From Candidatus Bipolaricaulota bacterium (GTDB taxonomy: Bacteria > Patescibacteriota > Patescibacteriia > UBA11705 > DATKZF01), in NCBI GenBank assembly GCA_035528115.1, contig DATKZF010000003.1:359089-423088 (forward strand): a stretch of DNA of 64,000 bases. The letters are read 5' to 3'. The translations under genes were made by a program, and so were the position numbers. The notes under the pieces were generated by a model. It worked only from the letters and a program-made list of their open reading frames with translations. It was not told the DNA's origin and searched no databases. This document shows positions 5,841 to 45,251 of this stretch, in pieces (position 1 is the stretch's first letter; every line of letters starts with the position of its first letter).

Positions 5841-5912
5841 TGGCGCGGGCGGGCGCGCCCCGGTAGGAACAGGGCAATGCCCTGTTCCTACATCGGCGGC
5901 AACGCCGCCAGC
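5841..5912. repeat. GC-rich multi-hairpin palindromic element, copy 1 (core palindrome GTAGGAACAGGGCAATGCCCTGTTCCTAC)
   Basis: Perfect inverted repeat at 5863-5891 followed by a second hairpin GGCGGCaacGCCGCC. About 75% GC within an AT-rich genome. Further copies are at 8912-9030 and 14238-14326. Confidence 0.8.
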
Positions 5913-7525: not shown

Positions 7526-8968
7526 TCATCTCCATCTCTTTAATCTTTCTCCCTTCAACTCCATTCGGGGCATGCCTTCAACCTTAATCTTCACCTCGGC
7601 CATGGCCAATCCAACCACAATCCAAACAAACGGCAAATAAATTATTGAAAACGAATTATATTGAATCAAAATGGCGATAATCACCCAAAAAAAACCTTCC
7701 AGCAAAATTTTCCTCAATTTATCCCCACTCGCTTTCATTGCTTTATACAAATAGAATAACAACAAAACAAAAAAACTCATAATCGCCAAAAACCCCCAAA
7801 TTCCGTTTTCCGCCAAAATTTCCAAATACAAATTATTAACGATTTTCCAATCTTGCCTCGATTCCCAGGCTTTTAGCGGCGCCAAAATACCGAAACTTCC
7901 CGGCCCTGATCCGAGCCATGGATGTTCTTTGAAAATCAGCCAAGCTTCCTTAAACGTTTCTTGCCTTTCCTGAAAAGCCGCGCCTTGAAAGGGATGGGTC
8001 GCGCGGTAAATGAATTGACCCGAAATGCCTGACGGAGCGATGAAATAAATCAATGTTCCGGCCAGACTGATTAAAACCAGCGCGGACACCGCCGCGATTT
8101 TTATTTTTCGAGAAATTTTTGAATAATTGAAAACCGCGAAGAGGATCAAAACGGCCAGCCCGGCCAGAAAAGCGCCTCTGGCGCTGGTCAGAACAAAATT
8201 TATCAGACTTAAAACCAAGGTGACTCGCAAAAACCATTTCATGCGCTCGCTTTTAACTTTATTCAATAAAAACAACGAACAAAAAACAATTGGCAAAAGC
8301 AAAAAATCGGCAAAATAAAGCGGCTCAATGAAAAGGCCTTGAACTCTGGTAAATCCCAAAATACTTTTGGTATATTTTTCAGTTAAAAAAGTCCAATTCG
8401 GGCCAAGCCCGGCCATGTCGGCGATGAATTGATAAAGCCCGAAAACGCAGGTTACTAAACTTGAGACCAAAAAGACTTTGATGGCTGTCGCGACTTCTTT
8501 TATCTTGTGGAAAAACTGTGGAATAAAAATAGATAAGCTTAAAATGAACACTGTGCTGACGAAAACAAACAAACTTCTATTTAAATCCGGACTAAAAAAC
8601 AAACCAAGGCCCATGATAATAAAAAATATGATACTCAATCTTTGCAAAGTATAGATTTTAGAGAATCTTGACCTGTATTCTTCAAATAATATCTTGGCAT
8701 TTTTATTGGCGGCGACTTCAAAAATCTTTTTATAAAACCAAATCAAAATTCCGATCAATAAAAAAACATGCGTCGGCCGGACGGTCGCTCCGAAAACATT
8801 GAATACAAAAACCCTTTCAATCGGCAAACAAAAAATGGCCGCATACAGCCAATATTTGCTGCCGGAAAACGTAATTTTTAATTTTTCAAATATATTTTTC
8901 ACATTTGAAATTTCGCGCGGCAGCGCGCGATCGCGCGCCGTAGGAACAGGGCAATGCCCTGTTCCCAC
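7526..8968 (-). CDS. O-antigen ligase / Wzy-like polysaccharide polymerase family membrane protein (paralog)
   Basis: Polytopic membrane protein with a Wzy_C-like loop. The annotated N-terminus (MGTGHCPVPTARDRALP) is read out of the GC-rich palindromic repeat, so the real start is probably downstream, possibly a non-ATG codon. Confidence 0.5.
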   Translation of the reverse strand: MGTGHCPVPTARDRALPREISNVKNIFEKLKITFSGSKYWLYAAIFCLPIERVFVFNVFGATVRPTHVFLLIGILIWFYKKIFEVAANKNAKILFEEYRSRFSKIYTLQRLSIIFFIIMGLGLFFSPDLNRSLFVFVSTVFILSLSIFIPQFFHKIKEVATAIKVFLVSSLVTCVFGLYQFIADMAGLGPNWTFLTEKYTKSILGFTRVQGLFIEPLYFADFLLLPIVFCSLFLLNKVKSERMKWFLRVTLVLSLINFVLTSARGAFLAGLAVLILFAVFNYSKISRKIKIAAVSALVLISLAGTLIYFIAPSGISGQFIYRATHPFQGAAFQERQETFKEAWLIFKEHPWLGSGPGSFGILAPLKAWESRQDWKIVNNLYLEILAENGIWGFLAIMSFFVLLLFYLYKAMKASGDKLRKILLEGFFWVIIAILIQYNSFSIIYLPFVWIVVGLAMAEVKIKVEGMPRMELKGERLKRWR

Positions 8969-14237: not shown

Positions 14238-14326
14238 GCGGCCGCGGCCGGCGCGCAATCGCGCGCGTAGGAACAGGGCATTACCCTGTTCCTACATCGG
14301 CGACACATTCGTCGCCGCCGGCCGCT
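14238..14326. repeat. GC-rich multi-hairpin palindromic element, copy 3 (inside the rpmH-dnaA intergenic/origin region)
   Basis: Core palindrome GTAGGAACAGGGCATTACCCTGTTCCTAC at 14268-14296. Second hairpin GGCGACacattcGTCGCC shows compensatory changes relative to copies 1 and 2. Confidence 0.8.
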
Positions 14327-28105: not shown

Positions 28106-28111
28106 CCTAAG

Positions 28112-28162
28112 CTCTCATGAGCCATTCGGCAACGCGGATCCAACATCGGGTCCGCTTTTTTA
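28112..28162 (+). terminator. shared terminator-like repeat R1 (GCCATTCGGCAACGCGGATCCAACATCGGGTCCGC plus T-tract)
   Basis: Near-identical copies at 29330-29395 and 29737-29780, each directly after a plus-strand minigene. Confidence 0.5.
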
Positions 28163-28213
28163 TTTTAAAATTTTTCTGAAATTGAAAAATGACCCTTGTG
28201 AAGAGCCACCTTG

Positions 28214-28753
28214 TTAAAAGTCTTGATCCGGAATCAGGCCGGCAATGCCACCGTTCACTAAACGGCGATGACTGATCTGAACCAGTGGAACCCGGCCCCC
28301 CTTAAATGTCGTGAAACCATGGCGTTGGGTTCTGTCCTCTATTGTCGCCACTCTGCTCCTAACTCGACGCAAATCGTCTTGCAGATCCTCCAACCGACCG
28401 TCAAGTTTCGAGAGATCCTTGCGGAGGCCGTCTTGTCCCTTTCTCACCTCTTCGCGCAGAGCGTCCTGACCCTGCTTCATCTTTCCCAGGTCGTCCGCAA
28501 GGGTTCCCACGCGGGCGTCGAGGTGATCCTGACCCTGCTTCATCTTTCCCAGGTCGTCCGCAAGGGTTCCCACGCGGGCGTCGAGGTGATCCTGACACTG
28601 CTTCATCTTTTCCAGGTCGTCCGCAAGGGTTCCCACGCGGGCGTCGAGGTGATCCTGACACTGCTTCACCTCCTTGCGGAGGGCGTCCTGGCCCGCCTTC
28701 ACTTCCTTGATACCTACTAGAATCTCACTTGTGTTGTCGAATTGCGTTTCCAT
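28214..28753 (-). CDS. coiled-coil protein with three tandem 21-aa repeats (QDHLDARVGTLADDLGKMKQG)
   Basis: Three copies of a 63-nt tandem DNA repeat at about 28440-28640. SD GAGAGGGA lies before the ATG. Architecture resembles the AT-rich ORF 62816..63163. The plus-strand ORF 28268..28720 is its antisense image. Confidence 0.5.
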   Translation of the reverse strand: METQFDNTSEILVGIKEVKAGQDALRKEVKQCQDHLDARVGTLADDLEKMKQCQDHLDARVGTLADDLGKMKQGQDHLDARVGTLADDLGKMKQGQDALREEVRKGQDGLRKDLSKLDGRLEDLQDDLRRVRSRVATIEDRTQRHGFTTFKGGRVPLVQISHRRLVNGGIAGLIPDQDF

Positions 28754-28956: not shown

Positions 28957-29316
28957 ATGAGTGATGAGAGATTCAGCGCAGATGAGTTGGAGGAGTACAG
29001 AGTCTGGGGAAAGAGAATGGCGCGCAGGGCAAGGCAAGCCGACGCGCTGTATGCGCAAGTTGGGGCGGAAGTCAGCGCAAAGGTGGAAGCTGCCGAGCGC
29101 GCGCCAACACTAGAGGCGGTTCACTTCCTTGTCAGTCATTTCAAGCTGACGCCGAAGGAGTGGATGTACCTGTACTGGCGCTACGCTATGCGCCTTCATC
29201 ACAAGGACGTGGCTGTAAAGATGGAAGTGTCCCGCCCGCGCGTGTCACAGCTCGGCCGGGCAGTGCGAGAGAAGATGGGTCTGGAAGGTCTGAGGCTCCT
29301 CGGACGCAACAGCTGA
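28957..29316 (+). CDS. sigma-70 region 4-like helix-turn-helix DNA-binding protein
   Basis: KDVAVKMEVSRPRVSQLGRAVREKMGL resembles the sigma region 4.2 / LuxR-type HTH. The protein is too short for a full ECF sigma factor. SD AAAGGGGG before the ATG. Confidence 0.4.
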   Translation: MSDERFSADELEEYRVWGKRMARRARQADALYAQVGAEVSAKVEAAERAPTLEAVHFLVSHFKLTPKEWMYLYWRYAMRLHHKDVAVKMEVSRPRVSQLGRAVREKMGLEGLRLLGRNS

Positions 29317-29329
29317 CACATTTCACGGT

Positions 29330-29395
29330 CATTTCCGCCGACAGCTCTCATGAGCCATTCGGCAACGCGGATCCAACATCGGGTCCGCTTTTTGA
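29330..29395 (+). terminator. shared terminator-like repeat R2
   Basis: CTCTCATGAGCCATTCGGCAACGCGGATCCAACATCGGGTCCGC plus TTTTTG. The first 50 nt are identical to R1. Confidence 0.5.
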
Positions 29396-29412
29396 TTGAA
29401 TAAAGACTTTAA

Positions 29413-29486: not shown

Positions 29487-29720
29487 ATGGCGATGAAAGC
29501 GATATGGTATTTAATTGTGTATTTTATTCTACAAGCGTTTTTCACGGGCTTGCTGTATCTTCTTGTGGAGAAAATGTTATCACCGCATAAGATGGACTGG
29601 CCCAGCGAATACGGATGCTACATGTTTCTCCTGATCGTCATCGCAGGTGAACTTGCGACGTTGGGAGGTCTTCTCGTCGTGCATTTCGGAGGTCTTTTTA
29701 GGGATGAGGAGAAGTCTTAA
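29487..29720 (+). CDS. small two-helix membrane protein
   Basis: SD AAGGAGGA before the ATG. 77 aa, hydrophobic. Followed by repeat R3 at 29737-29780. Confidence 0.4.
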   Translation: MAMKAIWYLIVYFILQAFFTGLLYLLVEKMLSPHKMDWPSEYGCYMFLLIVIAGELATLGGLLVVHFGGLFRDEEKS

Positions 29721-29771
29721 AGAAACTACCAGTAACGGTATGCGGATCCAACATCGGGTCCGCTTTTCTTA

Positions 29772-30443
29772 TTATAAAATTTTGGTAGACTCGACTGATT
29801 TGGCTTCCTCGCGTTCTTTAAGCAGATAAATACCAAGATACGACAGCGGCGTGTAAAGCGCGCCCATGGCCACTTTGTACAGCCACCAAGTGATGATGAT
29901 GCTGATCAGGGTGCGAGTCGGATATATGCCCGCGAAAGCGATAATCATGAAAATCGTCGAGTCCAGCAATTGCGACCAAATGTTGGATAAAAGAGACCGC
30001 AACCAAAAAGCCTTTACTCCCAATTTTTCCCGGAAAAAGAAAAATGACAGCACGTCTTGATATTCGGCTATTAAAAAGGCGGTCAGCGACGCGACGCTCA
30101 TGCGAATGGACAGTCCGAAAATTTGATTATAGCCTTGCCTCGCCCATTCCCCATCCGCTGACCAAGGCATGGCCAGTGAGATAAATGAGTAGGCTATGAA
30201 CAAGGCCGCGCTGATGAATCCGGCTAATACAAAGAATTTGGCAAGGCGCTTGCCGAAAACTTCTCCGATGACGTCGGTCATTAAAAATACTACCGGGAAG
30301 GAAAACACGGCCACTGACAGATGCGAGCCGAAAATGAACGGCATCATTTTCAGACCGAGAGTATTGGCCGCAAAAAGCGAGGTGAGATAGATGGTCAACG
30401 CTATAATCAGTTTTTTGAATGATTTTTTGGTGAGATGAATCAT
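29772..30443 (-). CDS. yhhQ: queuosine precursor transporter, YhhQ/VUT family (DUF165)
   Basis: FLMTDVIGEVFG and SQLLDSTIFMIIAF match the family's conserved D/E and Q..DS motifs. Six or more TM helices. Confidence 0.6.
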   Translation of the reverse strand: MIHLTKKSFKKLIIALTIYLTSLFAANTLGLKMMPFIFGSHLSVAVFSFPVVFLMTDVIGEVFGKRLAKFFVLAGFISAALFIAYSFISLAMPWSADGEWARQGYNQIFGLSIRMSVASLTAFLIAEYQDVLSFFFFREKLGVKAFWLRSLLSNIWSQLLDSTIFMIIAFAGIYPTRTLISIIITWWLYKVAMGALYTPLSYLGIYLLKEREEAKSVESTKIL

Positions 30444-30840: not shown

Positions 30841-31157
30841 GGGATAAGTAAAATTTTTTTAAGTGCCCCTCGACTTCGCTCGGGACATTCGACTCGTCTG
30901 GTGGTGGAACACCATGAGCGAGTCCGAGATTTCGAGGACGAGTCGAATGGTGGAGCCGAGTAGAGGAAGTTAGAACTTTTTTCGTCGCCGGAGCGCGCAA
31001 TACTGCCGATCCTGGCCGGGTACCTGCAGAGTACCACGACCGCACTGCTCGAGGATGTGCGAGAATATGACCTCGAGCACATGGCGAGAGTTCAGCATCC
31101 GAAGCAGCTCTGTCCAAACTCCTTGCCAGTTCGTAATTGGCCACGACGCAGTATGTA

Positions 31158-31186
31158 TTGACAGCAGATCCTATTAGTGCTAGGAT
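31158..31186 (+). promoter_or_regulatory. sigma70-like promoter (TTGACA, 17 nt, TAGGAT) inside the island
   Basis: TTGACA at 31158-31163. The -10 is imperfect. Confidence 0.3.
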
Positions 31187-31262
31187 ACCATATCCAGCCG
31201 CATCTTTCCCTCCCTTGCGTGCCCACCGAATTCCGGCAGGCAGACATCAGAGGGGAAGGGGG

Positions 31263-31514
31263 ATGGCTATGGGTCTTGCAAAGCATTTGCTACTCTGCGT
31301 AACGCTATTCCTAGCGTTTATGGCATTTTGGTATCTAACGATGGAAGGGTGGGCTAACGGCCAAGAAGGAGTCCAGTCGTGTGGTGGTGGATGCGGACGA
31401 ATTCTGTTTCTTCTGGAGGTCCTCTTGGCACAGACAGGCTCACTTTTGACGATGTGCATACTGCACTGGAGTGGACTGCCTCGTGGCAAGAGGCGAGATT
31501 CTCAGCAGTCCTAG
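31263..31514 (+). CDS. hypothetical small membrane protein (island cargo)
   Basis: SD GAAGGGGGA before the ATG. One or two hydrophobic helices and a CGGGCG motif. Trimmed from ORF 31137..31514. Confidence 0.3.
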   Translation: MAMGLAKHLLLCVTLFLAFMAFWYLTMEGWANGQEGVQSCGGGCGRILFLLEVLLAQTGSLLTMCILHWSGLPRGKRRDSQQS

Positions 31515-31856
31515 TTCCGAAGTTGTTCTGGCGGAACCGATCATCCGTGTTCCGCCTTTTTGTTTTCCCGCAAGAAACTCATGCGGCTTGATGCAATAGA
31601 TGACTCTCGGGTCATCGAACAGATGGGTCGGAAACGCCATTCCGACCCATTTCCATTGAACAGCGCTCATCGACAGCGAAGAAGACCGTCAATTCTTGCG
31701 CCGTCGTAGCCCTGCACGTAGTCGGACCCAATCACAGCGAACGGCAAACTGAGGTTGTCGGACCCGAGGATCCTTGATAGTCGTCGCGCCGACTCAGGAT
31801 CGCGCTCCACGTCGCGGCGACGATAGAATTGGAGCACGGTTGCCCTTCGTCCGCAA

Positions 31857-32360
31857 CTACGCGGAAATGTCTGCCAATTCCAATGACATGCTCGCCGCAA
31901 GATCGCCTGGACTGAATCTCATGCCACAGTACTCATCGCCACCGGCTCCGGTGACCAGCGCTCTCCGAAGAACGTTCCTATCAATGATCCTCCGATCACA
32001 AGACGATACAGCCACCGGCGGGACTCCACCAATACGAAACTGGGTCACCGACTCGATCTGCTGGGGCGTGGCGAATCGAAGTTTCTTGACGCCGACCAGT
32101 TCCGCGACCCTGCGAACGTCCAGTCGGTCAGATCCTAGTATTATGCAAGCGATGAATACATCCTCCCTTGGAGCATGCAAGACGAGTGTCTTGATGATGT
32201 TTTCCGATGCGGTTTCGAGGGCGGCAGAGGCCTGCGAGGTCGTCTTTCCAGACTGCTCGTGCATCATGAACTGGGCCCTCAGACCTACGCAACTTGCCAG
32301 TCTCTTCGCGCGGTCGATGGCTCCGGTGTCCAACTGGCGCTCCTTTCCAATCAGGTTGGC
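31857..32360 (-). CDS. YbaK/ProX-like aminoacyl-tRNA deacylase domain protein (island cargo)
   Basis: IKTLVLHAP...RLDVRRVAELVGVKKLRFATPQQIESVTQFRIGGVPPVA parallels the YbaK KTLV...GGVSP pattern. The 5' end is uncertain: no in-frame ATG at the expected position, so a GTG/TTG start is possible. The ORF-track entry extends to 32642. Confidence 0.45.
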   Translation of the reverse strand, partial: ANLIGKERQLDTGAIDRAKRLASCVGLRAQFMMHEQSGKTTSQASAALETASENIIKTLVLHAPREDVFIACIILGSDRLDVRRVAELVGVKKLRFATPQQIESVTQFRIGGVPPVAVSSCDRRIIDRNVLRRALVTGAGGDEYCGMRFSPGDLAASMSLELADISA

Positions 32361-32934
32361 GTGACAGACTTTGGGCGCACGTCTGAACGGTGGTAGGGGC
32401 GTGACGGACGGGGAGGTCGTGCTTGCACCCACAGCGGCACCCTCGAGGAACGAGGTCAGCGATTGGCCTGTGCCATGCCTCACCTGGCGTTGGGAACATG
32501 TCCGGCCGTCCGTTTCCGCGGGCACGCGGTGTACTCCTCTGCTGGTGTTGTTCATACTACATGCTTGGCCGCCGGTCGTCTTGGCCGCCGGCATTTGTGT
32601 TTCACTCATGCTAATTGTACGGAGATTGCGCATGCTTGTCAACCAGGCATCTCACTGAATTCCTCAAGCCGGCCTGCGTGGGTTCAGCGCAAACGGGGCC
32701 GTTGACAGCCTTCCAGTTCGCTGCTACGAAGACCACAGAGATCTCTGCGCCCGTGCAAAATGGATGGCCCGGTAGCTGCAGGATCGAACTGACGCCCGTC
32801 TTCACGACCTCTCGGGTCTTCCGTTCGCAACGGCCTCGCTCGGTCGCACCGGCCACGCGGAGCGAATGAGACAAGGTCGCAACCATCGCGACGGCATAAG
32901 TGTAGAATATATATACTACGTGAAGATAGATGTT

Positions 32935-32980
32935 AGAGCGAGAGAGATAGACACCTAGGAATGTCTATCTCTCTCGCTCT
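32935..32980. repeat. perfect 19-bp-arm palindrome AGAGCGAGAGAGATAGACA-cctaggaa-TGTCTATCTCTCTCGCTCT
   Basis: Arms at 32935-32953 and 32962-32980 are exact reverse complements. The 8-nt spacer contains CCTAGG. It lies about 350 bp upstream of the serine recombinase gene. Confidence 0.85.
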
Positions 32981-32985
32981 CTATC

Positions 32986-33297
32986 TTGAGTACTCTTGGA
33001 CGAGCCGTGTGCGACCGGGACCGCCTGCCGCTGCATGCTTTCGGTGTCTCCGCCACCCCCTGCCCGGACCAACCCAGGCGCGATACGCTTGTGGTGTTCA
33101 ACTACATGCCATTGACACAAGATGACATCGAGGATCTCAAGGGGCTGCTCAGGGCCGAGTACGGCGAGGAGGTGCCGCACGACGAGGCCTGGGACGTTGG
33201 CCTTTCTCTAGTCGAGCTGTGTCGAGTCGCTCTCCGGCCAGCCCCCGCGGCAAGGGAGTCAGACCCGACTGTGGATAACTCGCAGCTTGCCAAATAG
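32986..33297 (+). CDS. hypothetical small acidic protein upstream of the recombinase (possible accessory/directionality factor)
   Basis: ORF in GC-rich DNA. The segment MPLTQDDIEDLKGLLRAEYGEEVPHDEAWDVGLSLVEL looks protein-like. Low confidence because GC-rich DNA yields many spurious ORFs. Confidence 0.25.
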   Translation: MSTLGRAVCDRDRLPLHAFGVSATPCPDQPRRDTLVVFNYMPLTQDDIEDLKGLLRAEYGEEVPHDEAWDVGLSLVELCRVALRPAPAARESDPTVDNSQLAK

Positions 33298-33337
33298 CCT
33301 GGCCAGCTCTACGATCCACAATGAACGCTCGCCACCT

Positions 33338-34954
33338 ATGAAGCATTGCTATATTTACGCTAGAAAATCGTCGGAGTCCGAGGACCGACAGGTTCTGTCC
33401 ATCGACTCGCAGGTCAGTGAGCTCGAGCAGCTGGCCGTCCGGCTGGGACTGCCGGTCACCCGGGTGTTTTCGGAGTCGAAGTCCGCCAAGACTCCCGGGA
33501 GGCCGGTTTTCACCGACATGCTAGAACGTCTTCGTAATCCAGAGGGGAGCGTGGTGCTGTGTTGGAAACTCGATCGGCTGGCCCGAAACCCGCTTGATGG
33601 CGGGGCAGTGATTTGGGCGGTCGAGGAGCGCCAGATCGGGGAGATCGTCACTCCGGGTCGGACCTTCCGCAACACCGCCGACGACAAGTTCTGGATGCAA
33701 CTCGAATTCGGGATGGCCAAGAAGTACGTGGACGACTTGTCTGACAACATCAAGCGCGGAAACAGGGCCAAGCTCCAGCGCGGCCAGATCCCGGGGCAGG
33801 TCCCCCTCGGCTACACCAAGGACCCCTGCACAGGCGACACGATCCCCGATCCGGAACGGTTCGAGTTGGTTCGGCGCATTTGGCAGCGGCTTGTTGATGG
33901 CCACCGGCCGGCAGAGATCCTGAGGGTCGCCTCGAGCGACTGGGGTCTGCGAACGCGAGGTTCCAAGAGGACCGCGAGCGGGCCGCTATCGCCGTCGTAC
34001 TTCTACCGGTTGCTCTCGAATCCGTTTTACGCCGGCGTGGTTCAGCGTGCGGGCCAGGTCTACGTCGGTGCCCACCAGGCGATGGTCAGCCAACATGAGT
34101 TCGACCTGGCCCAGAGGATGTTGGCGGGCAGGTCCAACTCGAGATCTCAGCGCCACGAGCACACCTACGCCGGGCTACTGCGCTGCGGGGTGTGTGGCCG
34201 CATGTTCACCGGAGAGAGCCACACCAACCGCTACGGATCCACGTACGTGTACTACCGGTGCACTCGAAAGCGGCTGGGTAGCAGGGTGTGCCCCCAGCCC
34301 TACGTGCCCGAGAAGGTCATCGACGAGCAGGTGCTCGACTACCTCGGAAGGCTCTCAGTGCCGAGGCAGTTTGTGGACTGGGCCTGCAAGCGCCTCGAGC
34401 GCCTCGCAGCAGAGGATCAAGCGACCGAGCAGGTGGCGCAGTCGTCGATCGAGAAGGGCCTCGCTGCGGCCCAACGCAAACTCGAGAACCTGACGCAGCT
34501 GCGATTGTCCGAGATGATTGGTGACGAAGAATTCGTACTAGAGCGAGCCAGACTGCTGGACGAGGTCGCCGGTTTCAAGGCCCGCCTGGCCGCGCCCTCG
34601 ACCACGGGTCCCGCGTGGCTGCAGCCCACGAAGGAGGCGCTCGCCCTCGCCTCAAGGGCCGAAAATCTGTATCGCAGTGGACTGAAGGACGACAAACGGA
34701 CCATCCTGCGGGCCATCGGGTCGAACTTCTTCATCAGGGACCGGATTGTGCTAATCCAAGCCAAGAAACCGTTTCGCATTCTGGCCGCCGCCCGCGATTC
34801 CTCCGAGCCCGAGCCACCGCGGGTCGAACCCCGGGATTTTGGCTCAGCCAAACAAAAAAACGAGCCATCGAGTGGTCGTTTTCTCCTGTGGTGGACCCTA
34901 AGGGATTCGAACCCTTGGCCTCCTCCATGCCATGGAGGCGCTCTAGCCAACTGA
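33338..34954 (+). CDS. large serine recombinase (resolvase/invertase catalytic domain, recombinase domain and zinc-ribbon)
   Basis: N-terminal YIYARKSSESEDRQVLSIDSQ carries the catalytic Ser motif. The central region matches the recombinase domain. Zinc ribbon CGVCGRMFTG...YYRCTRKRLGSRVCPQP. Start trimmed to the ATG at 33338. The 3' end overlaps tRNA-Ala, so the true stop is uncertain. Confidence 0.85.
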   Translation: MKHCYIYARKSSESEDRQVLSIDSQVSELEQLAVRLGLPVTRVFSESKSAKTPGRPVFTDMLERLRNPEGSVVLCWKLDRLARNPLDGGAVIWAVEERQIGEIVTPGRTFRNTADDKFWMQLEFGMAKKYVDDLSDNIKRGNRAKLQRGQIPGQVPLGYTKDPCTGDTIPDPERFELVRRIWQRLVDGHRPAEILRVASSDWGLRTRGSKRTASGPLSPSYFYRLLSNPFYAGVVQRAGQVYVGAHQAMVSQHEFDLAQRMLAGRSNSRSQRHEHTYAGLLRCGVCGRMFTGESHTNRYGSTYVYYRCTRKRLGSRVCPQPYVPEKVIDEQVLDYLGRLSVPRQFVDWACKRLERLAAEDQATEQVAQSSIEKGLAAAQRKLENLTQLRLSEMIGDEEFVLERARLLDEVAGFKARLAAPSTTGPAWLQPTKEALALASRAENLYRSGLKDDKRTILRAIGSNFFIRDRIVLIQAKKPFRILAAARDSSEPEPPRVEPRDFGSAKQKNEPSSGRFLLWWTLRDSNPWPPPCHGGALAN

Positions 34955-34965
34955 GCTAAGGGCCC
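34889..34965 (-). tRNA. tRNA-Ala (anticodon GGC), G3:U70, CCA encoded
   Basis: Reverse complement GGGCCCTTAGCTCAGTTGGCTAGAGCGCCTCCATGGCATGGAGGAGGCCAAGGGTTCGAATCCCTTAGGGTCCACCA. Confidence 0.85.
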
Positions 34966-35068: not shown

Positions 35069-35145
35069 TGGTGCAGCCGGAAGGATTTGAACCCTCAACC
35101 CCTTGGTCCGAAGCCAAGTGCTCTATCCAGTTGAGCTACGACTGC
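35069..35145 (-). tRNA. tRNA-Arg (anticodon TCG), CCA encoded
   Basis: Reverse complement GCAGTCGTAGCTCAACTGGATAGAGCACTTGGCTTCGGACCAAGGGGTTGAGGGTTCAAATCCTTCCGGCTGCACCA. Confidence 0.75.
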
Positions 35146-35151
35146 ATTAGA

Positions 35152-35209
35152 AATAAACCTTGCCTGTCCGCCGAAGCTCCGAGCATAGCGAGGAGCGAAG
35201 GCGGAAGCT
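35152..35209. repeat. GC-rich insert (family shared with 17880-17945) flanked by a 16-nt direct repeat AGCTACGACTGCATTA that duplicates the tRNA-Arg 5' end
   Basis: Direct repeats at 35135-35150 and 35207-35222. Insert core CTTGCCTGTCCGCCGAAGCTCCGAGCATAGCGAGGAGCGAAGGCGG resembles GCTCCGACGAGCGGAGCGAGGAGGAGCGAAGGC next to tRNA-Gly. Confidence 0.55.
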
Positions 35210-35311
35210 ACGACTGCATTAAAAATGTTGACAATAGATTAACATTCGACTCGTTTTTTGGCAAGTCCGAGGCAATAAAAACTTAAGCAGCTTTGCCTAA
35301 GTTTTTCGGCA

Positions 35312-36004
35312 TTAATTCCATTTTTTCTTCTTTATCGCCTTGGTGGCCGCGTCTTCCTGAGCTTCTTGCTTGCTGGATCCGCCGCCTTTGGCCACCAGTG
35401 TTTTACCCAAAAAGACTCCGATTACAAATTTTTTGGCGTGATCCGGCCCGCTTTCTTCCAAAACTTTGTATGTTGGCGTGACCCCTTCTTTTTCTTGAGA
35501 GGATTCCTGTAATTTGCTTTTCGGATCCATGTATAATTTATGTTTTAAAATATACGGCAGCTCCGGCAATAAATGTTCGCAAATGAAATTTTTTGCCGCG
35601 TCCCAGCCTTGATCCAGATAAATGGAGCCGATCACCGCCTCGAAAGCATTGGCCAAAATATACTGCCTGGCCTTGCCCGTGTCTTTTGATTCTCCGCGGC
35701 TCAGGTATAAAAAGTCGTCCAGATCAGTGTCTTTGGCCAGCTTGGCCAGCATTTTACTGTTGACCAGACTGGCTCGCCAGTTCGTCAGGTCGCCTTCGGG
35801 ATTGTCGTAATTATTGTATAAGTATTCGGTAACGATCAATTCAAGCACGGCGTCGCCCAGAAATTCCAATCGTTCGTTGTGATTCAATTCGAAACTCGGA
35901 TGCTCGTTGAGATACGATCGATGCACCAGCGCCTGAGCCAATAATTTTTTATTTTCGAAAGTAACGTTGATTTTTTTCTCCAATTTACTGAAATCTTTTT
36001 TCAT
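35312..36004 (-). CDS. rnc: ribonuclease III
   Basis: ERLEFLGDAVLELIVTEYLY catalytic signature. C-terminal dsRBD. Confidence 0.9.
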   Translation of the reverse strand: MKKDFSKLEKKINVTFENKKLLAQALVHRSYLNEHPSFELNHNERLEFLGDAVLELIVTEYLYNNYDNPEGDLTNWRASLVNSKMLAKLAKDTDLDDFLYLSRGESKDTGKARQYILANAFEAVIGSIYLDQGWDAAKNFICEHLLPELPYILKHKLYMDPKSKLQESSQEKEGVTPTYKVLEESGPDHAKKFVIGVFLGKTLVAKGGGSSKQEAQEDAATKAIKKKKWN

Positions 36005-44646: not shown

Positions 44647-45215
44647 TTATGAGTTTAGTTTACCTAAAAAATAAGGTATTGGCAATATAACACATTTTTT
44701 TAAAATTTAAAAGGGCGCATGCGATCAGCCCAATTGGGTAAATATAAGGCTTGTATGCGCCCAGAGGCAAAGGAGATTTACGCCACTCCCGTTTCGACCG
44801 AAGTCAATTCGGAAGACAAGGCGTGTTTTGCCAATTTAGCGCTCGACGCGCTGTCCGGTTCCCGCTTCGCGGCGCTTGCCTATTGAGGCCGCGCCTTGGT
44901 AATTTCGTTTTTGTTTTTATTTTGTGACGTATGGCCGAGTCCGGTCGAGAAGGGCTCGGAATCAAAGCAGGTTTCGGAGTTTTCCTGTAGAGTAAGAGAA
45001 TGAGTGCGATTTTGCAAAGAACTGGTGTGAACACTGGAGGTGTTCACGTGTTGGTAGAGAGCTTGGAATGTGATCCGTTGTCTCTGCATATATTATATCA
45101 AGAACATTTTCTTGAGTCAATGTCTAATCCGTTGAATTATTATAAAAAGGCTAAAATTAGCCCCAATACGTGTGTTTATCGCGATTGATTCTTATTTGCG
45201 ACAATGCTTCATCTG

Positions 45216-45251
45216 TGGATAAGTGGTGTCTAAAGCCCATGTTATCCACAC
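45216..45251. promoter_or_regulatory. pair of inverted perfect DnaA boxes (TGTGGATAA at 45216-45224; TTATCCACA at 45243-45251)
   Basis: Exact matches to the DnaA-box consensus, 18 bp apart, in a 600-bp intergenic region. Confidence 0.5.

Follow-up and report, generated by a model that had tools for sequence, protein, structure and literature searches.

The 46-bp palindrome at positions 32935–32980 of the window (i.e., the whole 64-kb stretch of DNA that was analysed) is real, unique, and beyond chance. Reading the sequence, we tentatively propose that it is a cis-regulatory hairpin of the operon formed by ORF63 and the gene for a large serine recombinase (LSR), acting as an RNA leader or an insulator. 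We hold this best explanation with rather less than even confidence. We infer that the palindrome is transcribed, and likewise the position of the transcription start and the molecular effect.

Structure of the palindrome and of the element that carries it

The perfect core is embedded in a longer predicted hairpin:

Core palindrome: 32935..32980, unstranded; 19-nt arms and an 8-nt spacer
Extended hairpin: 32923..32987, unstranded; AAGATAG (32923–32929) pairs with CTATCTT (32981–32987), leaving the bulge atgtt (32930–32934)

The arms AGAGCGAGAGAGATAGACA (32935–32953) and TGTCTATCTCTCTCGCTCT (32962–32980), of 19 nt each, are 100% reverse complements on either side of the 8-nt spacer cctaggaa (32954–32961), which contains CCTAGG. 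The 19-bp stem has no mismatch or wobble, and the centre of the 46 bp is asymmetric, with a central AG. Both arms are purine/pyrimidine tracts with AGAN periodicity, and AGATAG occurs four times. Fold predictions added an outer extension of 7 bp across a 5-nt bulge, giving a total stem of 26 bp with one bulge; the naive chance of this extension is ~8e-4, a value to be read with the caveat that the arms are low-complexity GA/CT sequence. The predicted RNA folding energy was −46.4 kcal/mol on the + strand (z −5.0) and −48.5 kcal/mol on the − strand (z −7.1), where two extra U.G pairs close a CCUA tetraloop. As single-stranded DNA, the predicted energy was −24.6 kcal/mol (z −6.9).

The palindrome is the longest perfect inverted repeat of the 64 kb, the runner-up having arms of 14 nt. 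The maximum arm in 20 composition-preserving block-shuffles was 9–11 nt, and by a naive estimate ~5e-6 arms of 19 bp would be expected per window. A second copy of the arm was not found in the window with up to 3 mismatches allowed, and 0 of 100 shuffles matched. The palindrome was base-for-base identical in three independent assemblies (ENA ERZ27256828, JGI 3300031565, and Logan SRR8554643), indicating that it is not an assembly artefact. The contigs with neighbouring host genes were all 100% identical and all carried the element; no empty-site or variant alleles of the locus were present among them.

The palindrome lies in an element of ~3.94 kb (30955–34895) integrated at the 3' end of tRNA-Ala(GGC). 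The segment that bears it has 55–66% GC, and the embedding DNA has 38–50% GC. The features of the element and its border are as follows:

Small hydrophobic ORF: 31263..31514, + strand; promoter-like site at 31158–31186
11-bp hairpin: 31623–31650; between convergent genes, 3' of the hydrophobic ORF
Cargo gene with a YbaK-type aminoacyl-tRNA editing domain: 31857..32594, − strand; divergent from the recombination module
Strong promoter-like TTGACA-17-TACAAT of the editing-domain gene: 32642–32614, − strand
ORF63, a 63-aa two-helix protein: 33106..33297, + strand; conserved, precedes the LSR gene
LSR, integrated form of 538 aa: 33338..34954, + strand; Pfam Resolvase, Recombinase, and Zn_ribbon_recom
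tRNA-Ala(GGC), the integration target: 34889..34965, − strand; intact when integrated
Host RNase III gene: 35312–36004; outside the element

The first-pass annotation had described exact arms around cctaggaa, a CCTAGG within the spacer, a repeat unlikely to arise by chance, a position inside an island, and a distance of about 350 bp to the recombinase. Each of these descriptions held: the recount gave 19/19, and the measured distance to the start at 33338 was 358 bp.

In the integrated form, the last ~20 codons of the LSR gene run antisense through tRNA-Ala. This tRNA gene is followed on the same strand by tRNA-Lys and tRNA-Arg, and the operon is transcribed toward and into the element; the scan found no canonical terminator between the tRNA operon and the palindrome. 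The element contains no replication, relaxase, packaging, or transfer genes. In addition, the family search found no HTH or other recognisable DNA-binding gene in it.

The palindrome lies 126–171 bp 5' of ORF63, which opens a conserved recombination module of two genes. Of about 75 related loci, 56–58 carry an ORF63 homologue 5' of the LSR gene, in most cases directly before it. Databases list at least 324 members of the family, nearly all of them without a name. ORF63 has a coding-type GC1/2/3 pattern, and AlphaFold2 predicted a two-helix hairpin with a mean pLDDT of 81 (>90 over residues 1–40). Pfam, PHROG, and PDB held no match, and the fold search was uninformative. We infer that ORF63 is an accessory factor of the LSR and possibly a directionality factor. 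ORF63 was also considered as the DNA-binding partner of the palindrome and rejected, as it has no family match and its two-helix model has no DNA-binding fold match.

The perfection of the arms raises another explanation, that the palindrome is young and functionless, having arisen by template switching or hairpin-templated repair in low-complexity GA/CT sequence, and has yet to decay. Its perfect 19 bp, the periodic arms, the four occurrences of AGATAG, and its uniqueness (79 of 80 related loci have no counterpart of similar size) would agree with such an origin, and the available copies are all clonal, without variation that would reveal purifying selection. Nevertheless, the palindrome sits exactly in the regulatory gap in which the relatives are enriched for dyads, adjoins the only AT-rich, promoter-like patch of an element of 60% GC, and extends past its perfect arms in a manner that suggests a selected structure. 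We therefore regard a recent, functionless origin as unlikely.

Attachment sites, repeats, terminators, and origins

Integration splits attP into attL and attR, and an intact attP exists only in the excised form. The junctions were located as follows:

attL core TGGTGGA: 30948..30954, unstranded; at the left GC boundary
attR core TGGTGGA: 34889..34895, unstranded; antisense of the ...TCCACCA 3' end of tRNA-Ala
P' arm: 30955..31070, + strand; codes for the conserved LSR C-terminus SRVEEVRTFFVAGARNTADPGRVP..., contiguous with the gene solely in the excised circle

Joining 33338–34895 to 30955 onward gave a 557-aa protein ending ...LLWWSRVEEVRTFFVAGARNTADPGRVP..., which aligns with the family motif. 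The joining of the junctions thus restores the conserved LSR C-terminus, indicating that attP lies within the 3' end of the LSR gene. Judged by this joined sequence, integration swaps the last ~40 codons of the gene. The reconstructed attP is 34845–34895 joined to 30955–31000.

The LSR belongs to a clade with thousands of homologues in many phyla, with identities of at most 49% to the LSR of the window. Its identity to phage integrases is ~23–27%, and SPbeta SprA/YokA are only remote relatives. Among the 76 related loci with a complete gene end, 31 have the gene's 3' end overlapping that of a tRNA gene on the opposite strand; the tRNA targets among the related loci are His, Trp, Gln, Asn, Ile, Val, Leu, Glu, and Pro. 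The C-terminal motif W..(L/V)(D/E).VRTFF....P was found in 22 of the 45 homologues away from tRNA genes and in 0 of the 31 tRNA-adjacent copies (Fisher p = 9e-7); in several of the latter, the protein ends in a tail of the RDSNP type, translated from tRNA antisense sequence. Three relatives' loci were searched at their distal ends for long direct repeats of the 3' portion of the tRNA, and only chance-level matches of 9–12 nt appeared. The clade is widespread and uncharacterised, and in many phyla it targets tRNA genes at their 3' ends. As a separate observation, a conserved partner of two helices and a promoter motif resembling a DnaA box accompany it.

These sites bear on the earlier suggestion that the palindrome is the attP-like core of the recombinase. 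We rejected the palindrome as attP, as it is internal, ~2 kb from either junction, and the true cores are at 30948–30954 and 34889–34895. The best ungapped match between an arm and the border regions was 10–11 of 19, which equals the background in the rest of the element; that is, the comparison with the island borders that had been proposed yielded no shared half-sites above background. A 46-bp dyad with a non-palindromic centre is an attP-like trait that is not diagnostic alone. We also considered whether the palindrome may be an attachment or accessory binding site of the element's own LSR. A quasi-palindrome of 46 bp with a central AG looks much like a serine-integrase att site, and the LSR gene is close by. 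Likewise, the att sites of Bxb1, phiC31, and A118/LI have ~46–50 bp, inverted half-sites, and an asymmetric centre; however, natural ones are imperfect dyads, whereas the palindrome is perfect, internal, and unlike the mapped junction half-sites. Moreover, attP is split, with the joined TGGTGGA junctions restoring a W..VE.VRTFF C-terminus; tRNA overlap and the C-terminal motif are mutually exclusive in the relatives (31:0 versus 23:22, p = 9e-7); the arms match the borders at 11/19 at best; and no relative conserves such a site. An att or accessory site of the LSR is accordingly the reading to which we give the least credence, and we consider it very improbable.

The palindrome did not behave as a dispersed repeat of the REP or MITE type, a candidate that was rejected given the single copy in the window and the lack of matches in genome and viral collections. 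Its inner 12+12 core had no exact match in 185,579 species genomes or in IMG/VR. A metagenome scan for the same core with a 3–14-nt spacer returned four contigs, all of the same homologous locus; a GAGAGATAGACAGGAT...ATCCTGTCTATCTCTC hairpin lies there just 3' of a desulfoferrodoxin gene, with flanks unrelated to the window. Stems of 12 bp are very numerous; therefore, this match is best read as chance. Identical palindromes spread through unrelated genomes had been named as an outcome that would speak for a generic repeat, and the 19-nt arm was found nowhere else. Rfam 15, searched at gathering and permissive thresholds, returned only a spurious MIR6462 hit (20 bits against a gathering threshold of 96, E = 5.5). 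The 463-bp intergenic region showed no similarity to plasmid or phage records.

An intrinsic terminator has a G+C-rich stem followed directly by a U-tract. We rejected the palindrome as a canonical intrinsic terminator, as no U-tract follows on either strand (the stem is followed by ctatcttgagtac on the + strand and by aacatctatcttc on the − strand) and the standard scan was silent; the host's own terminators have T-runs. With intrinsic bidirectional terminators the palindrome shares a strong hairpin on both strands, and two relatives (L003 and L004) have repeats with an A-run, a stem, and a T-run. It differs from them in lacking a U-tract, in its much longer stem, and in not lying at the 3' end of a recognised gene.

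An origin was also considered. No iterons or direct repeats were found near the palindrome, and the element has one DnaA box, at 33270–33279, 290 bp from the palindrome. A DnaA-box cluster as an origin was rejected on this single box in the whole element, and an oriT was rejected since the element has no relaxase or transfer gene and no plasmid similarity. The earlier proposal of a replication or transfer origin thus fails on the lack of a rep or relaxase gene, the lack of iterons, and the distance of the only DnaA box. A variant of this idea is that the palindrome is a cis site through which a helper replicates, packages, or transfers the circle of 3.9 kb after excision (an ori, a pac/cos-like site, or an oriT mimic). 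In its favour, the element itself lacks genes for replication, packaging, or transfer, whereas its relatives carry primase-helicase, RuvC-like, and winged-helix genes. An AT-rich patch and a large dyad occur together here, and the palindrome of one relative (L057) has three 10-bp direct repeats beside it. In contrast, the missing iterons, the lone DnaA box, the absence of a relaxase or rep gene and of plasmid or phage similarity, and the fact that the helper is not known all weigh against it, and we consider a helper-driven site quite improbable.

Promoters, related elements, and the possibility of an operator

The palindrome had been placed in non-coding, GC-rich DNA. The second part of that description does not hold, since ~32898–32990 is an AT-rich patch in an element of ~60% GC. 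The first part holds only in part, since the 358-bp gap to the recombinase includes ORF63 (33106–33297). On the other side, the ORFs at 32615–32869 (+) and 32611–32886 (−) have no family matches and a weak coding signal. The palindrome lies between divergent genes, the editing-domain gene on the − strand and the ORF63/recombinase genes on the + strand. The promoter-like features around it are as follows:

AT-rich near-palindrome GTAGAATATATATACTAC: 32902..32919, unstranded; −10-like hexamers on both strands, a small stem in the fold
Weak promoter-like GCGACG-18-TATACT (8/12): 32888..32917, + strand; from the relaxed scan, below the standard-scan threshold
Weak promoter-like CTAACA-19-TATATT (9/12): 32906..32936, − strand; −35 overlaps the left edge of the palindrome
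Sigma-70-like promoter TTGCCA-17-TACGAT: 33287..33315, + strand; before the recombinase start
DnaA-box-like motif TGTGGATAAC: 33270..33279, + strand; 7 nt 5' of the −35 of the recombinase promoter

The standard scan found no canonical promoter for ORF63. Near the palindrome, the relaxed scan returned the 8/12 (+) and 9/12 (−) sites only, both in the AT-rich patch. GCGACG-18-TATACT has its predicted +1 at ~32924, where pairing in the extended stem begins. Extra half-sites of the palindrome were not found at the element's other promoters.

We compared the region with its counterparts in related elements. Inverted repeats of at least 10 matched bp were present within 300 nt 5' of the ORF63 homologue in 16 of 55 relatives (29%), compared with 66 of 610 control upstream regions from the same loci (10.8%), a ~3-fold difference (Fisher p = 4e-4). 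These repeats differ in sequence, size, and position, and many lie 27–40 nt before the start codon of the ORF63 homologue. Several of them (L017, L022, and L015) have spacers of 1–2 nt and are DNA dyads, which cannot be RNA hairpins. L003 and L004 have their terminator-like repeats at the equivalent position. L028 and L032 share conserved arms and a variable loop. The palindrome of L057, with 18-bp arms, overlaps both a TATAAT and the operon's first start codon. The annotation had proposed to look for conservation of the palindrome in related elements, and a comparable palindrome 5' of the recombinase was absent in 79 of 80 related loci, the exception being L057, with some weak cases besides. 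A dyad in the control region of the module therefore appears, from these sequences, to be a recurrent, loose family trait, of which the copy in the window is by far the largest apart from that of L057.

Such a trait also agrees with a different explanation, in which the palindrome would serve as an operator at the level of double-stranded DNA. The repressor, a dimer or tetramer, would come in trans from the host or a helper element, or be a protein of the element that escaped recognition; bound to the dyad, it would shut the weak divergent promoters and so control the ORF63/LSR operon. The dyad lies in a control region between divergently oriented genes; at its left edge it shares sequence with the −35 of the weak minus-strand promoter, and the +1 predicted for the plus strand coincides with its start. 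In 23 relatives, a divergent XRE-type HTH gene stands 5' of the same module. The relatives' enrichment for inverted repeats at this place, the 1–2-nt spacers of L017, L022, and L015, and the L057 palindrome over its TATAAT and start codon point in the same direction. However, the element has no DNA-binding gene and no remnant of the relatives' HTH gene; tblastn with the relatives' upstream genes gave no match in the element or the window, and a decayed repressor gene beside the palindrome was rejected on this result. The arms far exceed typical operator half-sites, the asymmetric outer pairing with its 5-nt bulge fits folding better than symmetric contacts, a second copy or half-site is missing from the other promoters, and the flanking promoters are sub-threshold at 8/12 and 9/12. 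The operator that had been offered as one option for the palindrome is thus still plausible with respect to its position in a control region and the ~3-fold excess of dyads in the relatives, and is weakened by the missing DNA-binding protein and the weak promoters. Overall, we regard an operator as the main rival of the hairpin, possible but doubtful.

A proposed regulatory hairpin for the recombination module

A hairpin that acts at the level of the transcript remains the reading we prefer. The length of the arms, the bulged extension, and the absence of a DNA-binding gene from the element favour a folded nucleic acid. One dimeric repressor needs arms much shorter than 19 bp, and a bulge in the outer extension is tolerated by folding only, which argues for a folded nucleic acid over a symmetric protein site on double-stranded DNA. 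RNase III acts on about two helical turns (at least 20 bp) of near-perfect double-stranded RNA; the predicted stem of 19 + 7 bp with one 5-nt bulge is long enough by this measure to be a putative substrate. The stem is exceptionally strong on both strands, and the arms are perfectly Watson–Crick, so that it would form in transcripts of either direction. In addition, the only + strand promoter candidate for ORF63 puts its +1 where the stem begins to pair, and the lack of extra half-sites near the other promoters is as a hairpin would have it. The excess of inverted repeats in the relatives (16/55 versus 66/610), with arms kept and loop variable in L028/L032, is consistent with the same reading. 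Finally, the host has an RNase III gene, and the tRNA operon reads into the element without a canonical terminator before the palindrome.

We propose that the AT-rich patch to the left of the palindrome may serve as a weak promoter, from which the operon transcript would open with the 26-bp stem-loop. Because of the perfect Watson–Crick arms, the same stem would form in antisense transcripts entering from the tRNA operon. The hairpin would then act after initiation, as a 5'-terminal stabiliser, as a double-stranded RNA target of RNase III, or as a block that does not depend on a U-tract. Its effect might be to set the amount of partner protein and recombinase made, and it could also shield the recombination module from the divergent cargo gene and serve as an insulator against antisense read-through.

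Several observations speak against the hairpin. The flanking + strand promoter is weak (8/12). No U-tract follows the stem, and the ribosome-binding site and start codon of ORF63 are not overlapped, lying 126 nt downstream. Operators are classically found between divergent genes, as the palindrome is, and perfect symmetry could mean a recent origin. In addition, the closest recombinase relative has 49% identity, and there are no close relatives in which the stem could be compared for conservation or covariation.

The palindrome resembles regulatory dyads and hairpins already known from integrase control regions, and this kind of feature is not new. The regulation of intS in prophage KplE1 is reportedly a paradigm of dyad control at integrase/excisionase regions. 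Like the control-region dyads of temperate phages and integrative elements, the palindrome is a dyad 5' of a recombination-module operon, between divergent genes, with an AT-rich −10-like sequence. It differs from them in that the element encodes no repressor, the dyad is a single copy, the outer pairing is asymmetric, and the arms (19 bp + 7) are ~2x the usual half-sites. The ompA-type 5' hairpin and the lambda sib retroregulation of int are mRNA stem-loops that stabilise the message or are processed by RNase III. With these the palindrome shares a long double-stranded RNA stem (26 bp, one bulge) by an integrase operon, a +1 at the first paired base, and an RNase III gene in the host. In lambda, sib is located 3' of int and integration parts the two, whereas the palindrome is upstream and linked in both the integrated and excised states, and its processing is putative.

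A more specific version would make the hairpin an RNA switch that senses the state of the element. In the integrated form, strong antisense transcription from the tRNA operon would cross the recombinase and ORF63 genes and end at the stem or be cut there by RNase III, with the module silenced and the cargo protected; in the excised circle, which would lack this input, the stem would cap and stabilise the operon mRNA. We consider such a switch a long shot. If true, together with the swap of the LSR C-terminus it would amount to lambda-sib-like retroregulation from one palindrome in a helper-less element.

The palindrome is thus a candidate control of when a tiny element makes its recombinase, and this would be useful mainly for domesticating the LSR family. 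That it is not an att site avoids a wrong choice of substrate in integrase use, for which the real attP comprises 34845–34895 and 30955–31000. More valuable than the palindrome itself is its context, i.e., an LSR clade that targets tRNA genes, with attP located in its own gene and a C-terminus that is swapped upon integration.

Core and loop of the palindrome

The palindrome and the two genes downstream of it are located as follows:

32935-32980: palindrome with 19-nt arms and the spacer cctaggaa at 32954-32961
33106-33297 (+): ORF63, the 63-aa partner gene
33338-34954 (+): large serine recombinase

The inner core (12+12 nt) of the palindrome was found again in four related metagenome contigs, L088-L091 (e.g., L088 2149-2183), where it forms a conserved hairpin with a 16-bp stem immediately 3' of a desulfoferrodoxin gene. 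Because the flanks of these hairpins are unrelated to those of the window palindrome, we read the shared core as chance convergence. The loop (32954-32961) holds the self-complementary hexamer CCTAGG, which in RNA could permit loop-loop (kissing) dimerisation; however, a palindromic hexamer within an 8-nt loop has, by our own estimate, a chance of ~5%, and the hexamer is therefore probably a coincidence. In the related Falkowbacteria element L057 (2650-2735), a palindrome with 18-bp arms overlaps a TATAAT as well as the start codon of the leading gene of the operon, and is preceded by three direct 10-mers (TTCACGCACA / ATTACGCACA / TTCACGCACA).

DnaA boxes and the ORF63 family upstream of the recombinase

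A further short motif was located between the palindrome and the recombinase gene:

33270-33279: perfect DnaA-box 9-mer, TGTGGATAA

This box lies 7 nt upstream of the -35 of the recombinase promoter; the form usual across the window and its relatives is TGTGGATAAC. In the window and 10 relatives (including L003, L018, L019, L022, L023, L024, L028, L032 and L060), a perfect DnaA box precedes the recombinase start at 60-450 nt, as compared with an expected 0.23 (p ~1e-13). This recurrence, together with the position of the window box near the -35, suggests that the recombination module is under the control of DnaA or another protein of the same specificity. At 45214-45250, a further pair of perfect DnaA boxes, inverted relative to each other, lie 28 nt apart.

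Homologues of ORF63 are present in 56-58 related loci, upstream of the recombinases of this clade; in some loci, the homologue is the first gene of a longer operon that also holds a primase-helicase. The family consists of so far uncharacterised two-helix proteins of 50-75 aa with the consensus M.LSDE.I.KFQ.IY..EFGEEIS.EEAY..G..LV.L.R.I..P, and the ORF63 product may serve as a directionality factor or another accessory factor.

Other repeats and a possible foreign fragment

Repeated sequences were observed at several other positions:

5863-5891, 8943-8965 and 14267-14295: palindrome GTAGGAACAGGGCA-N-TGCCCTGTTCCTAC
28110-28164, 29343-29397 and 29718-29772: repeated 55-nt segment
28464-28671: three tandem 63-nt repeats within ORF 28214-28753 (-)
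30887-30950: 13-bp inverted repeat cattcgactcgtc / gacgagtcgaatg
35134-35226: 21-nt direct repeat of the tRNA-Arg(TCG) 5' end, AGCTACGACTGCATTAGAAAT / ...AAAAAT

The three palindrome copies have similar flanks and constitute a repeat family. Each 55-nt segment lies downstream of a different gene, and its end is formed by a canonical terminator hairpin (GCGGATCC..GGGTCCGC) with a T-run. The 63-nt repeats are 95-99% identical and encode a protein repeat of 21 residues. A 119-aa ORF (28957-29316), 1.6 kb left of attL, has 59% GC amid low-GC DNA; it has a sigma-70 region-4/LuxR-type HTH at its C-terminus. The ORF shows no relationship to the XRE-type genes that related elements carry, and could represent a second fragment of foreign origin.

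The 13-bp inverted repeat, with a 38-nt loop including TGGTGGTGGA, lies immediately outside attL. In the empty site, this DNA would follow tRNA-Ala, and the repeat may represent the displaced terminator region of the tRNA operon or an older att scar. At tRNA-Arg(TCG), a 51-bp GC-rich insert sits between the 21-nt repeats; a second tRNA could here carry a scar or a mini-insertion.

Recombinase gene split and attachment sites

Integration splits the serine recombinase gene (regions 30948-31070 and 33338-34965), with identical cores at the junctions:

30948-30954: attL core, TGGTGGA
34889-34895: attR core, TGGTGGA

When the element ends were joined in silico, a 557-aa protein was obtained in which the conserved C-terminal W..VE.VRTFF motif of the family was regained. 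Among the related loci compared (L003-L082), the motif was present in none of the 31 tRNA-overlapping recombinases and in 22 of the 45 others; that is, motif and overlap were mutually exclusive (p = 9e-7).

Within 30955-30985, the P' arm carries a T-loop-like sequence, GTTAGAAC. Counted by eye, its TTAGAA begins at nt 23 from the core, whereas the real tRNA T-loop TTCGAA in B' (34896-34915) begins at nt 18, i.e., an outward shift of 5 nt. The shift in the window element recalls the offset of the zinc-ribbon motif between attP and attB that has been described for LI integrase. The recombinase clade is widespread and multi-phylum; the 3' ends of tRNA genes of many species of tRNA are its targets, and its attP is located within the 3' coding end of its own recombinase gene.
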